Positions 2-4,639 of a DNA stretch of 64,000 nt are shown here, piece by piece (within the stretch, counting starts at the first letter, position 1; each line of letters starts with the position of its first letter). Location of the stretch: the IMG/VR virus record IMGVR_UViG_3300032007_000036, positions 1 through 64,000 of that record; one strand, given 5' to 3'. The notes beneath the pieces are model-generated. The model was not told where the DNA came from and made no database searches. It saw only the letters and a program-made list of their open reading frames with translations. The translations under genes and the position numbers were made by a program. The stretch comes from a virus. Lineage: Duplodnaviria > Caudoviricetes.

Positions 2-355
2 CCTAAGACTATCCAGCATTACTCCAGACATGATCACATCGTTGAGAATCTTACCGCAGGCAGCCATGGGAACTCCGTTGGGGTAGAAGACCTTCTCTCG
101 ATCGTGATGATCGTATCTTCCTCCACCAACGTCATAGACAACAGCGCAAGTCTCGTTGAGATAGTCGACATCTCGAGACCTGACGATGTGTACATCGTAA
201 CCCAACGGTTTAAGTTCATGTACAAGAACAGCCGTTGCCAGTAGTTCATCTGCATGGAACTCACCGTTATGAGTACCGAGATTGATCCGTTTATACGGAT
301 GCTTGTCTCCAACTTCCATGAGCCGGAGTATTAAATCTGATTGTTGCATCGACAT
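2..355 (-). CDS. MYG1/UPF0160-family (DHH-like) metal-dependent nuclease, partial (runs off window start)
   Basis: My translation from the ATG at 355 (AAGGAAG upstream) gives MSMQQSDLILRLMEVGDKHPYKRINLGTHNGEFHADELLATAVL...VRSRD...VYDVGGGRYDHHD, which has the THxGxFHADE, RxRD and DVGG..DHH motifs of MYG1. Not in the ORF track because the frame is open at the edge. Confidence 0.88.
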   Translation of the reverse strand, partial: MSMQQSDLILRLMEVGDKHPYKRINLGTHNGEFHADELLATAVLVHELKPLGYDVHIVRSRDVDYLNETCAVVYDVGGGRYDHHDREKVFYPNGVPMAACGKILNDVIMSGVMLDSLR

Positions 356-917: not shown

Positions 918-993
918 CATCTAACCAAAGTTGAAATACATTTTTTCGTACATCAATTAGCCATCGTCTAGATAACAATTGGAGGTAAAACGA

Positions 994-3594
994 ATGTTCT
1001 GGAAATCAGTAACACTCGACAACTACATACCTTTCACTCACAGTGGAATCAAGCATGTAGACATTGACTTCTCCAGGTGTGCAAATGCAGTAGCTATTCT
1101 CGGTGGTAACGGATCAGGTAAGAGTTCTCTGTTGAGAGCACTTACTCCTTATCCTAGCGTTAGGACTGACTTTGGACCTGGAGGCAAGATAGTCAAGGTA
1201 CTTTCCCACAATGGAAAGATCTACGAACTTACCAGCGACTTCAGCAATACAGGATCTCCTCATTCGTTCAAGGTGGATGATGTTGAGCTTAATCTATCTG
1301 GAACAACGGAGACTCAGAAAGATCTGGTTGAAGAGCACTTTGGTATAACCAAGTTGATAGATGATCTTCTTATTGGCGATTTCAGCATATGTGACATGAG
1401 CAAGGCTGAGAGAAGGTCGCTGTTCTCTTCGTTATATCCTGGAGATTTGTCATTCGTAATCGACTATTACAAAAAGGTATGTTCGTCGATAAGGGCTTGT
1501 GGCAACCAGCTCAAGTTGCTCAAGAGCAGAGAAGCCACATTGAGAAGTTCTCTGATAGATGCTGATGAGAGGGTTAGACTCGATAGGTTCCGTGAGAATG
1601 CTCTTAACTTTGTCAACACGATAGATAAGGACATTCTCAGGATCGAGGAGAACATCAAGATCTACTCTGCGAACAATGTAGAGTCCGATCTGACTCCTGA
1701 GAGACTTGCTGGTCTTAAGGATGAAGTTATCAATCTCAAGAAGAAGATCCTTAGGAACTACATGATCTACGGGATCAGGCAGAAGATCAAAGACAATCCT
1801 GGTCCTGTGACTATCGAGGAGATAGGAGATGAACACGCTGTAGTTGCCAGTGTAACTAGGGAACGTATAAGTGTGTTAACTTCTCAGTTAAGTTCGATCA
1901 GAGATGAGTTGAACTCATTTATTGCTTGTCGAGAGATGAGCAAGTCGTTCGACGAGAAAGACAACCTCGAGAAGAGGTACAAACAACTTCAGTCTGACCT
2001 GAGTAGTGTGTCTGAGCTGATAGGCAAGGAAGTTCCTGTAACTGTTGATCCTAACTACATCGATGCAATCGAAGCTGAGCTTATCCCTTATCTTAAGACC
2101 TGGTGTGAAGAGATGCACGGACAAGGTGTTAGGCTCAACACATGGGAAGAGATATCTAATCTACAGTCCAAGTTGGATAATGCTACCATGACTCTCAACG
2201 GGTCTATCGGTGAGGAGTTGTCCAAGATAAGCAGTGAGATAATCTCTGTTAGGGATAGGTTGAACAAACTTCAAAGTAGACCTTATCCTAAGGACTGTCA
2301 TCAAGTTTGTCCTCTCAGATCTGCCGTCAAAGACAACATCGACTCAGCAGAGAAGAGAATTAATGAGTTGGTTGAGCGTAGGAACCAACTTATCACTCAG
2401 AGAACAGAACTTGAGAAGTTCGTTTCTGAAGCTTCTCCTGTTCTTGAGACTCAGAAGAAACTGCACCAGTCTTTAACGACAGCTGTGTACGGTATACGCA
2501 AGATGTGTGTTGAGCACATAGCGTTCAATGGAGACGATCCTGTAGATGTGTGTAACAACAAGTGTTTCGAGATAGTCAATCGACTTATCCGAGCTTGTGA
2601 AAAGTCTAGGCTCGTAACTCGCAGGAACTTGATCTGCGATGAGATGAAGTCTATTCAGGACACACTTCAGGCATTAGCATCTACCAAACAAATACAGGTA
2701 TCTGCAGAGATAGTCGAGAGCACTATCCGCGATAGGGAAGAGAAGCTCAATCAGGGAATCAAGGAAATCGAACGTCTAGAGGAACTTTGCAAAAGAGAAA
2801 GTCACCTAAGTCAGGATATCAACGAAACAGCCAGAGACTTCAGCGAGATGCTCGGGCTGCAGAGTGAGATAACCACTTATGTCAAGTCTGAGACGATCAA
2901 GTCTTGGATAGAGTTCTATCGTGGTGTTGCCGATGACCTCATTAAGGCCAAGAACGACATCAACGAGGAACTATTCACTATAAGCAAGGTTCTTCAGGAG
3001 CAAAACAAGTACTCCAGTATTCTGGAGGACGAGATCCTTCCAACCATCAACAACGTGACTGTGGCTAAAGCCAACTACGAGGCAGTGGCAGACGGGTTGT
3101 CACCTGTGAACGGGTTGCCATGTATCTACCTGATAAGGTTCATTAATAGACTTATAGCTAAAGCGAACAAGATCATTGGTAAGGTGTGGTTCTACAACCT
3201 TGAACTTATGTATCTGGATGAGGAGTCCGATCTGGACTTCAACATCAAGGTCATGTTCAGGAACTCCACAGAAGCCAAGGATATTAGCCTGTTGTCCAAC
3301 GGCCAGAAGGCCATGGTTGATCTGGCTATGAGACTCGCTCTCTGTATAGAGAGGGGATTTTTGGAAGAGTTTGCTGTAAGGCTAGATGAGATAGATGGTC
3401 CATTGACGGAAGAACATCGCACAAAATTAGTGTGCATGCTCAGCGATCTCATGGATAAAGGGGTGATCAAACAGATGCTATTGGTCAACCATTATGCCAT
3501 GCAAACTGGCATGCACCAGTGCAGTTGCATAGCTCTGAATACTGAAGGGATCATAGTCCCTGACGACGTTAATGCTTGTGCCGAAATATCGTGA
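994..3594 (+). CDS. SbcC/Rad50-like SMC ATPase (phiKZ gp165-like)
   Basis: Walker A GGNGSGKS, long coiled coil with a central CxxxCPL zinc-hook-like motif, signature LSNGQ, Walker B RLDEID. GGAGG RBS supports the ATG at 994. Confidence 0.9.
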   Translation: MFWKSVTLDNYIPFTHSGIKHVDIDFSRCANAVAILGGNGSGKSSLLRALTPYPSVRTDFGPGGKIVKVLSHNGKIYELTSDFSNTGSPHSFKVDDVELNLSGTTETQKDLVEEHFGITKLIDDLLIGDFSICDMSKAERRSLFSSLYPGDLSFVIDYYKKVCSSIRACGNQLKLLKSREATLRSSLIDADERVRLDRFRENALNFVNTIDKDILRIEENIKIYSANNVESDLTPERLAGLKDEVINLKKKILRNYMIYGIRQKIKDNPGPVTIEEIGDEHAVVASVTRERISVLTSQLSSIRDELNSFIACREMSKSFDEKDNLEKRYKQLQSDLSSVSELIGKEVPVTVDPNYIDAIEAELIPYLKTWCEEMHGQGVRLNTWEEISNLQSKLDNATMTLNGSIGEELSKISSEIISVRDRLNKLQSRPYPKDCHQVCPLRSAVKDNIDSAEKRINELVERRNQLITQRTELEKFVSEASPVLETQKKLHQSLTTAVYGIRKMCVEHIAFNGDDPVDVCNNKCFEIVNRLIRACEKSRLVTRRNLICDEMKSIQDTLQALASTKQIQVSAEIVESTIRDREEKLNQGIKEIERLEELCKRESHLSQDINETARDFSEMLGLQSEITTYVKSETIKSWIEFYRGVADDLIKAKNDINEELFTISKVLQEQNKYSSILEDEILPTINNVTVAKANYEAVADGLSPVNGLPCIYLIRFINRLIAKANKIIGKVWFYNLELMYLDEESDLDFNIKVMFRNSTEAKDISLLSNGQKAMVDLAMRLALCIERGFLEEFAVRLDEIDGPLTEEHRTKLVCMLSDLMDKGVIKQMLLVNHYAMQTGMHQCSCIALNTEGIIVPDDVNACAEIS

Positions 3595-3604
3595 ACTGGG
3601 ATCC

Positions 3605-3634
3605 TCCACGGTGTAGATTTCTCTACACCGTGGA
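3605..3634. terminator. Hairpin terminator
   Basis: TCCACGGTGTAGA-tttc-TCTACACCGTGGA directly after the SbcC stop codon. Confidence 0.7.
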
Positions 3635-3658
3635 AGGGTCTATTTTAACAAAAAAGAA

Positions 3659-3731
3659 TCGACGGCGCTCTAACCATTGAGCCACAGACGCTTATGCGTC
3701 TGGCGGGACTCGAACCCGCAACTTCCATCGA
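3659..3731 (-). ncRNA. Circularly permuted tRNA-like RNA with no anticodon loop
   Basis: The - strand reads TC-GATGG-AAGTT-GCGGG-TTCGAGT-CCCGC-CAGACGC-A-TAA-GCGTCTG-TG-GCTC-AATGGTTA-GAGC-G-CCGTC-GA, i.e. the 3' half of a tRNA comes before the 5' half, and all four stems pair. Confidence 0.85.
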
Positions 3732-3741
3732 AGCCATGTAA

Positions 3742-3756
3742 GTGATATATGCTTGA
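3742..3756 (-). promoter_or_regulatory. Early-type promoter variant (TCAAGCATATATCAC)
   Basis: One mismatch to TATATTAC with the upstream TCA conserved; about 10 nt upstream of the permuted tRNA. Confidence 0.7.
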
Positions 3757-3783
3757 GACTTGATAATCTACATATTCGACGCC

Positions 3784-3817: not shown

Positions 3818-4639
3818 ATGCACTATCCGCTAGATCATGCCATTATGACCGTTTGCTCGAAAATACCGCCTGAAGTACTCGAGCTCGGCATAATAAAGGC
3901 TAATAAGAAGTTTCACATCAACAACAACCTCACTGAGTTCCTATGCAGGGACATCATCAACAAAAGGGTTCTCAAGGACTGCAACCTTGTGTCTGGTGAG
4001 GTCAAGACCATTGTCCTTAAGCCTACCTGGCTAGAATCCATGGTTGGAGACCACGGTGGCTATGCCGGAGACGACGGTCCGAATACAGTTTACCGTGTAC
4101 CTCCTGAGGCTAGAGATGGCAAGTCTATCAGTCAGGTTCTTACTGTCCAGTTCCCTTATCTGACCTATCAGTCAAGCGGTATCGCTAATGCAGACATTGC
4201 ATCTGGCGGCTATTCGCTAGTTGACCAGGTAGATCAGGTTCTGAACTCCTGGACCCTGGCTACTCCTAGGAACCACCCTGTTGTGACCTTGCTGTCTGGG
4301 GATCTGGTCAAGTTGACTCCTTCACAGTACACAAGGCAGAACTGGTTGCTTACCTGTCGTATCAACTACGATGAGACATTCAACAACATGAGTGACTCCT
4401 CGGTCAGGATACTGTCTGATTTGGTGCTGTATGCCACTCAGGAGTGGCTGTACACTAACCTGATCGTTGACATCGATCGTGCCGAGCAGGAGACAGGTAT
4501 GGACATCAACACTATCAAGTCGATAGTGGAGAAGTTTGAGAGTGCCGGTGAGAAGTATGAGGAGACTTTCCTGAAGTTCAGGGGAGCCAGTCTGCTTACA
4601 CCTGAAGTTAGACGTAGGCTTCTGTACTACCAGCTTTAA
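3818..4639 (+). CDS. Putative virion structural protein, phiKZ-like conserved family
   Basis: 273 aa with AAGGAAG RBS; the N-terminal PLDHAI...IPPEVL resembles a conserved jumbo phage virion family (recall only). Confidence 0.55.
   Translation: MHYPLDHAIMTVCSKIPPEVLELGIIKANKKFHINNNLTEFLCRDIINKRVLKDCNLVSGEVKTIVLKPTWLESMVGDHGGYAGDDGPNTVYRVPPEARDGKSISQVLTVQFPYLTYQSSGIANADIASGGYSLVDQVDQVLNSWTLATPRNHPVVTLLSGDLVKLTPSQYTRQNWLLTCRINYDETFNNMSDSSVRILSDLVLYATQEWLYTNLIVDIDRAEQETGMDINTIKSIVEKFESAGEKYEETFLKFRGASLLTPEVRRRLLYYQL

Follow-up and report, generated by a model that had tools for sequence, protein, structure and literature searches.

The first 64,000 nucleotides (nt) of the IMG/VR virus record IMGVR_UViG_3300032007_000036 (Duplodnaviria; Caudoviricetes), called the window below, carry on the minus strand a small element predicted to fold like a transfer RNA (tRNA) with its halves in permuted order and without an anticodon. 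Judged by sequence and predicted fold, this element is the tRNA-like core of a YrlA-type Y RNA without the Ro60-binding part. The permuted arrangement itself is already known, also in phages; what sets the element apart is that it has no Ro60-binding handle and no partner gene in the record, and that it has homologues in bacteria. The record is a virus contig of 131,442 bases, estimated to be 49% complete, and negative results given below for the whole record cover that part.

Permuted cloverleaf and its place among YrlA RNAs

The element consists of the following parts, all on the minus strand; the variants mentioned are those of the related contigs treated in the next section.

3659-3731 (-): cloverleaf as a whole, 73 nt, like a tRNA that is open in the anticodon loop and joined across the acceptor end.
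3731-3725 (-): 5' strand of the closing stem, TCGATGG, of which the last 5 nt match tRNA positions 39-43; the changes in variants preserve pairing (A-U to G-U).
3724-3720 (-): variable loop AAGTT, whose last U would be able to form the A15:U48 Levitt pair (list of conserved YrlA nucleotides, 10.1101/312249).
3719-3703 (-): T-arm GCGGG-TTCGAGT-CCCGC; the stem equals the Rfam YrlA consensus and is invariant across variants.
3702-3696, 3695-3692 and 3691-3685 (-): closed acceptor hairpin of 7 base pairs (bp), with strand CAGACGC, loop ATAA, and strand GCGTCTG, respectively.
3684-3667 (-): U8-G9 (TG) and D-arm GCTC-AATGGTTA-GAGC (D-arm itself 3682-3667), as read from the sequence.
3666-3659 (-): G26 and 3' strand of the closing stem, CCGTCGA (3665-3659); a G-U pair becomes A-U in variants B-E.

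The closing stem of 7 bp includes one G-U pair, and the perfect 7-bp acceptor stem is stacked on a 5-bp T-stem. The nucleotides that make the tertiary contacts of the tRNA L-shape are present, namely U8, G18-G19, the TTCGA T-loop, and A15 together with U48. CCA is not encoded, and neither flank offers a 7-nt anticodon loop with U33 and a purine at position 37; the anticodon-side helix is simply lengthened to 7 bp by two additional complementary pairs. When the sequence was re-read, the structural details given in an earlier note on this DNA (7-bp acceptor, 7-bp closing stem with one G-U, no CCA, no canonical anticodon loop in the flanks) all proved correct. The span of 3650-3756 named there includes the cloverleaf, but the cloverleaf proper is confined to 3659-3731 and the remainder is the promoter-like motif and the U-tract.

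The minimum-energy fold of the predicted 89-nt transcript is the permuted cloverleaf (-36 kcal/mol, 54% of the ensemble, z = -3.5), and none of 200 shuffled sequences folds as well. After re-ordering of the halves and insertion of any 7-nt loop, a check that the earlier note had proposed, ARAGORN calls a normal 76-nt tRNA. Neither for the window nor for the whole 131-kb record does the same program predict a tRNA or a transfer-messenger RNA (tmRNA), as that note expected of standard tRNA scanners. The G-U pairs and the loop consensus are compatible with the minus strand alone. An RNA from the plus strand was rejected, as the complement folds worse as a cloverleaf, its G-U pairs become C-A mismatches, and there is no T- or D-loop consensus. 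A small protein was rejected as well. The open reading frame (ORF) of 30 amino acids (aa) that overlaps the element (3645-3737, -) is shifted in frame in variants B-E by a 1-nt indel in the D-loop, and it is not coding.

A sensitive Rfam search of the region returned YrlA (RF02553) as the single significant family, with 40 bits and an E-value of 2.2e-7 over the full model. The T-arm, the closed stem, and the D-arm are aligned to the model, with the T-stem (GCGGG/CCCGC) and the D-stem (GCUC/GAGC) identical to the consensus, while both outer helices of the model are unsatisfied. YrlA RNAs are Y RNAs of the bacterial Ro60 protein (Rsr), and their effector module is a permuted tRNA mimic of this topology (Chen et al. 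2014, PMC4201824), for which a crystal structure is available (Wang et al. 2018, 10.1101/312249). YrlA-like sequences have been described from 254 bacterial species and 22 phages (PMC4201824), so the view in the earlier note that such an arrangement had no precedent in a phage does not hold. [quoted passage not shown]

With this family the element shares the permuted order of T-arm, closed acceptor-like stem, and D-arm, set on a helix that replaces the anticodon arm. Also shared are the conserved tertiary nucleotides and the family D- and T-stem sequences (10.1101/312249), including U8, G18-G19, the T-loop, and A15:U48, and the lack of both a free CCA and an anticodon; a pyrimidine ends the variable loop, and G9 stands in place of the usual A. 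Y RNAs of the YrlA type are recognized by a helix of the 5' and 3' ends, the sequence GNCGAAN0-1G near the 5' end, and a Ro60 gene within about 4 kb on the same strand (PMC4201824). No GNCGAAN0-1G was found in the leader of the element and no outer clamp helix, only the 7-bp closing helix before the U-tract; the ACAGCAA handle with its clamp is absent too. A Ro60/TROVE gene within 4 kb on the same strand is absent among the neighbours, and no TROVE or DUF2828 gene was found in the 131-kb record, which is about half of the genome. The element thus differs from YrlA in having neither a Ro60 module nor, in this record, a Ro60 gene, in the length of its core (73 nt against about 110-135 nt), and in its location in a jumbo phage distantly related to phages of the phiKZ/SPN3US type.

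Permuted tRNA genes of Cyanidioschyzon merolae yield functional tRNAs with anticodon loops, and two-piece tmRNA carries a tag reading frame. Both have, like the element, the 3' half encoded ahead of the 5' half. Unlike the former, the element encodes no anticodon loop; unlike the latter, it has no tag frame, is not called as tmRNA by ARAGORN, and would end at the U-tract. The comparison with them drawn in the earlier note therefore comes down to mere resemblance, since the arrangement is of the YrlA type.

Variants in related phages and homologues in bacteria

Relatives were collected by means of DUF7484 homologues, the members of the 90% cluster of this protein, and their contigs. The permuted element is present in 11 independently assembled contigs from different runs, as five sequence variants, so the same arrangement was indeed found in related phage contigs, and an assembly chimera is ruled out. 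The slot between the SbcC-like gene and the DUF7484 gene has three states among the relatives compared. It holds the permuted tRNA-like cassette in the 11 contigs, it is nearly empty with only a different hairpin in contig L002 (DUF7484 protein 96% identical), and it is filled in contigs L066 and L067 with an unrelated cassette of 419 nt on the same strand that begins with TATATTAC and has a 54-aa ORF. The comparison marks the element as accessory cargo that the phage can do without. No tRNA genes are at the slot in any relative examined. Relatives with about 70% identity in DUF7484 have another gene order and no YrlA match within 3 kb. In the unrelated cassette (L066:1005-1512, and its counterpart in L067), the TATATTAC motif is followed by a leader of about 190 nt that holds a 15-bp hairpin and no ORF, and then by the 54-aa ORF on the minus strand; the cassette gave no match in Rfam and no informative match in PHROG or Pfam.

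Nine columns are variable among the 11 copies, five in loops and four in stems. The loop changes are in the T-loop, in the acceptor loop (including the discriminator position), and in the D-loop (including a 1-nt indel), and three of the four stem changes retain pairing through G-U. The acceptor stem is invariant in the five variants and its loop reads ATAA or TTAT; the D-loop occurs as AATGGTTA, AATGGTA, and AACGGTA. One variant has G-U as the first pair of the D-stem, and another has A-C there. Four of the five variants keep all 23 pairs. In the flanking genes, 22-42% of four-fold sites differ between variants. The stems differ at two of 46 positions between variants for which this figure is 28-42%, and the probability of such stem conservation is about 5e-5 at the lowest neutral rate for that variant pair. 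We regard this as moderate support at most for selection acting on the fold. Megablast of the element against cultured phages gave no match, and scans of IMG/VR with the exact element, the acceptor hairpin, or relatives of DUF7484 or of a 471-aa protein gave nothing usable.

Among 185,579 species genomes, a scan for the T-loop with the 3' strand of the acceptor stem found tRNA-Arg genes and two permuted elements, and a second scan for the hairpin with the start of the D-arm found the same two permuted elements only. One is on locus L197 of Coriobacteriaceae metagenome-assembled genome (MAG) RUG14206, and the other on locus L206 of Atopobiaceae MAG RGIG5869 from sheep jejunum. In both, the T-stem, the 7-bp acceptor stem CAGACGC/GCGTCTG, and the GAGC-G-CC junction are the same as in the phage element, and the T-loop has at most one difference; the copy of RUG14206 is about 89% identical to the element across a 56-nt core. 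Unlike it, the bacterial RNAs go on into an inner helix of 3-4 bp, then internal loops and an outer clamp (e.g., GCUGGU/ACCAGC), and reach about 115-130 nt, whereas the phage copy is the core alone with a 7-bp closing helix of its own. TROVE proteins are encoded in both genomes, on contigs other than that of the RNA. As the acceptor stems of all 11 other YrlA-like elements compared differ from that of the element and acceptor stems are variable among YrlA RNAs (10.1101/312249), the identity with the two Coriobacteriia indicates a specific relationship. At two pairs of the inner closing helix, both nucleotides are different in phage and bacteria, yet pairing is kept (G-U or A-U versus U-A; U-A versus G-C in RUG14206), which supports this helix as a conserved feature. 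Of the relatives found, these two are the nearest. By its sequence, the element belongs to the lineage of YrlA-like RNAs of gut Coriobacteriia, and it may have been captured from them.

Mimicry of tRNA-Arg was considered and rejected, as the acceptor stem and the T-arm resemble tRNA-Arg(UCU) of many bacteria, but both MAGs have that 5' sequence solely in the YrlA-like RNA. In both genomes the RNA has a divergently adjacent gene (L206:4299-6770, -; L197:527-2842, -), which encodes a conserved protein of about 800 aa with 59% identity between the two, no Pfam family, and only a weak match to NCBIfam RING_SCO0854. A functional link of this protein to the RNA may or may not exist, and no homologue of it was found in the phage record. 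An RF02553 search of 121 Coriobacteriales genomes gave matches of which nearly all inspected were false positives caused by tandem tRNAs. Sub-threshold matches in this order (L239-L268) reached E-values down to 1e-8, and those inspected were mostly tandem tRNAs (Pro-Gly, Asn-Asn). Before a YrlA call below the gathering score is accepted, closure of the acceptor and the absence of tRNA from the flanks need to be confirmed. Generic patterns of T-loop followed by D-loop in IMG/VR and JGI metagenomes matched, among the matches listed, mostly tandem tRNAs and unrelated YrlA-like RNAs.

Two cultured phages with YrlA-like RNAs, Xanthomonas phage 10KY502B (L074) and Microbacterium phage SM23 (L075), were reached through BLAST with the element. 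They served as positive controls: their YrlA-like RNAs (L074:1018-1126 and 1474-1578; L075:1500-1565) are followed directly downstream by TROVE genes and possess long clamps. The GenBank records of both phages label part of each RNA as tRNA-Thr or tRNA-Asn, which looks like mis-annotation of the tRNA-like domain; such elements are missed by tRNA scanners or, as in these two records, mislabelled as tRNA genes. A second permuted, anticodon-less tRNA look-alike in a phage was seen in IMGVR_UViG_3300029705_000144 (L045:5560-5700, -). Its acceptor, CACATGT/ACATGTG, is a closed stem of 7 bp. It stands at the 3' end of a tRNA array with at least 12 genes, and its 8-bp outer clamp is followed by ACAGCAA. 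No TROVE gene was found in this 57.8-kb record (40% complete). In contrast to it, the element has neither clamp nor ACAGCAA and is outside any tRNA array. The YrlA of Mycobacterium smegmatis, also from Actinobacteria, has a loop-closed 7-bp acceptor stem like that of the element. In vitro this RNA is a substrate of RNase P, and in vivo it undergoes cleavage and CCA tailing; it differs in binding Rsr and in being encoded at the rsr locus (PMC4201824).

Genomic setting and transcription signals

Proteins of the record match those of jumbo phages distantly, with 20-30% identity, for example those of Noxifer, Goslar, and SPN3US-like and RSL2-like phages. The element lies between a SbcC/SMC-like gene (979-3594, +) and the DUF7484 gene (3818-4639, +), on the strand opposite to both, and therefore cannot belong to their transcripts. 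The other neighbouring genes code for proteins without a family match, and a 667-aa neighbour was uninformative. A MYG1-family (DHH-type) exonuclease gene (window 2-355, -; L002:1-170), with the TATATTAC motif in front of it, is found a short way upstream of the SbcC-like gene. The features around the cloverleaf are as follows.

3598-3779 (-): exchangeable cassette of about 182 nt, with limits taken from comparison of the window with L002 and L066/L067.
3742-3749 (-): promoter-like motif TATATCAC, ending 10 nt 5' of the cloverleaf.
3732-3741 (-): short 5' leader TTACATGGCT, which would be transcribed only in part if the start is about 5-6 nt past the motif (start position after PMC7598289).
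3649-3658 (-): U-tract TTCTTTTTTG, abutting the closing helix 8 nt after the D-arm and invariant in all variants; likely a signal of intrinsic termination.
3603-3636 (no strand assigned): hairpin of 15 bp, with a loop of 4 nt, that separates the element from the stop codon of the SbcC-like gene; it belongs to the exchangeable cassette.

The stems of the last hairpin are invariant and its loop varies (GAAA, GCAA, TTGT), and other hairpins are in this place in L002 and L066. It is probably the terminator of the convergent plus-strand gene. A scan for sigma-70 promoters and a simple terminator scan found nothing at the element; the latter remained blank at the U-tract because the helix in front of it closes a multi-branch structure.

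Early promoters of jumbo phages, used by the virion RNA polymerase, are motifs that are conserved, rich in A and T, and about 10 nt long, with their centre near -10 (PMC7598289). The motif TATAT[CT]AC has ten copies in the 131-kb record, which is the number expected by chance; their placement is non-random. Nine of the ten are on the minus strand and eight are in the 7.9% of the record that is non-coding; four copies lie 37-42 nt 5' of a start codon, and a ribosome binding site with ATG is downstream of most others. Within the window, copies are at 387, 917, 3749, 33791, 46032, 49356, and 61109, all on the minus strand. This motif could serve for mapping one temporal class of transcription units in the phage. 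The earlier note had described the locus as an early transcription unit of its own. A promoter of its own is likely, given the placement of the motif copies and their fit to the early promoters of jumbo phages, whereas the early timing is what we infer from the type of motif. The description of the locus as a dedicated gene for a tRNA-shaped RNA unable to decode agrees with the anatomy, the opposite strand, and the element's own motif and U-tract. The heptamer ACAGCAA has 18 sites in the window against 9.3 expected, a number reached in none of 100 shuffles; the sites checked are all in coding regions, none adjoins the element, and codon bias is a possible reason.

Proposed function and alternatives

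The reading we prefer, with about an even chance of being right, is that the element encodes a functional stand-alone mimic of the tRNA body that acts by binding protein. The gene would make a small phage RNA of about 85-95 nt, equal to the tRNA-like module of a YrlA-type Y RNA alone, from its own AT-rich phage promoter, with the end most likely at the closing helix and U-tract. This RNA would fold as a tRNA L-shape without an anticodon loop or a Ro60-binding handle, and for lack of these it would function as a mimic of the tRNA body in free form. It could be neither decoded nor cut in an anticodon loop and would probably not bind Ro60, so the elbow and the D, T, and acceptor stems would be left to it, the surfaces to which the YrlA effector was proposed to bind (10.1101/312249). 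With these it might occupy a host factor that recognizes the same parts of tRNA, and work as a decoy or competitive inhibitor early in infection. This factor might be a tRNA-directed nuclease or the effector of the YrlA that the host itself has. Cleavage by RNase P at the junction of loop and G1, as in the M. smegmatis YrlA, is plausible and would leave the role unchanged. A helix that ends exactly at the stem, the two extra pairs, and the bracketing motif and U-tract look like a designed minimal unit and not like a fragment. [quoted passage not shown] The specific proposal of a Ro60-independent, handle-less YrlA core that serves as an early decoy, either blocking a tRNA-directed defence nuclease or detaching the host Ro60-YrlA particle from its effector, is tentative and rather improbable as it stands.

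Several observations weigh against the preferred reading. The RF02553 score of 40 bits is below the Rfam gathering threshold of 69 bits; the bacterial homologues (L197 with 49 and L206 with 35 bits) and the phage RNAs beside TROVE genes (56, 47, and 38 bits) are below it too, so the threshold is strict for these lineages. The closest relative by identity of a neighbouring gene (96%) is without the element, which can accordingly be dispensed with. One variant has the A-C mismatch in the D-stem, and the covariation looked for among the phage homologues is absent, with no pair changed on both sides in the five variants. The cassette flanks (1-8% divergence) are at least as conserved as the element (7-11%), and the low divergence may thus stem from a recent exchange of the cassette no less than from selection acting on the fold. 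Finally, only about half of the genome is in the record, and a partner protein may be encoded elsewhere.

The last point bears on the explanation of the element as an ordinary Y RNA, the partner of which would be a Ro60-like protein (TROVE or DUF2828) from the other half of the genome or the Rsr of the host, bound through the 7-bp closing helix or the leader. Every characterized YrlA works with Ro60 (PMC4201824, PMC12135203), the record is 49% complete, both Coriobacteriia MAGs with the homologous RNA have TROVE genes, and CUUACA of the leader is partly like CUUACAGCAA. CUUACA would be mostly untranscribed, however, if the start follows the promoter motif. GNCGAAN0-1G, ACAGCAA, and the outer clamp are all missing, the outer Rfam helices are unsatisfied, and there is no TROVE or DUF2828 gene in the 131 kb and none within the published distance of 4 kb on the same strand; the positive-control phage RNAs sit directly upstream of TROVE and have long clamps. 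We consider this explanation unlikely. It is distinctly less probable that the product is a chargeable two-piece tRNA-like molecule, cut by RNase P before G1, trimmed at the 3' end, provided with CCA, and then aminoacylated or used through its free acceptor end. The processing of the M. smegmatis YrlA, with its 7-bp stem, in vitro and in vivo (PMC4201824) and the perfect 7-bp acceptor on a 5-bp T-stem, common to the relatives of Actinobacteria type, are in its favour. The discriminator and the loop are not conserved, with A or U at the discriminator in the phage variants and A or C in the bacterial homologues, which argues against a fixed aminoacylation identity and a conserved charging function; moreover, neither an anticodon nor CCA is encoded, and there is no evidence of charging for any YrlA (PMC4201824).

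Two further explanations ascribe no function to the element or another origin. As an inert passenger it would be a fragment of a YrlA-like gene from a bacterium or phage, brought into a hypervariable slot by illegitimate recombination and not yet decayed. The slot is indeed variable, empty in L002 and with another cassette in L066/L067, compensatory covariation within the phages is missing, and flanks as conserved as the element or more so fit a recent spread. Set against this are the exact excision, the extension of the helix to 7 bp, and the promoter motif and U-tract that flank the structure, as well as 23 of 23 pairs intact in four of the five variants next to the 22-42% four-fold divergence nearby, with changes mostly in loops; this origin therefore seems rather unlikely to us. 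A deletion remnant of two tandem tRNA genes is hardly credible. A tandem duplicate of one tRNA truncated at both ends would give the same pairings, and sub-threshold YrlA matches are often tandem tRNAs (also PMC4201824), but the 131-kb record is without any tRNA gene, the flanks are not anticodon-loop sequence, and the full YrlA-like RNAs of bacteria share the permuted order. The tandem tRNA genes which, according to the earlier note, relatives might carry here were not seen; their slot is empty or holds the unrelated cassette.

That two gut Coriobacteriia genomes have an identical acceptor hairpin points to exchange of RNA genes between phage and bacterium, and possibly to the host. The function and the binding partner of the tRNA-like domain of bacterial Y RNAs are an open question (10.1101/312249, PMC7790460). 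[quoted passage not shown] Should the proposal of an early decoy be true, it would be the first function assigned to YrlA's tRNA-like domain and a new class of RNA-based counter-defence.

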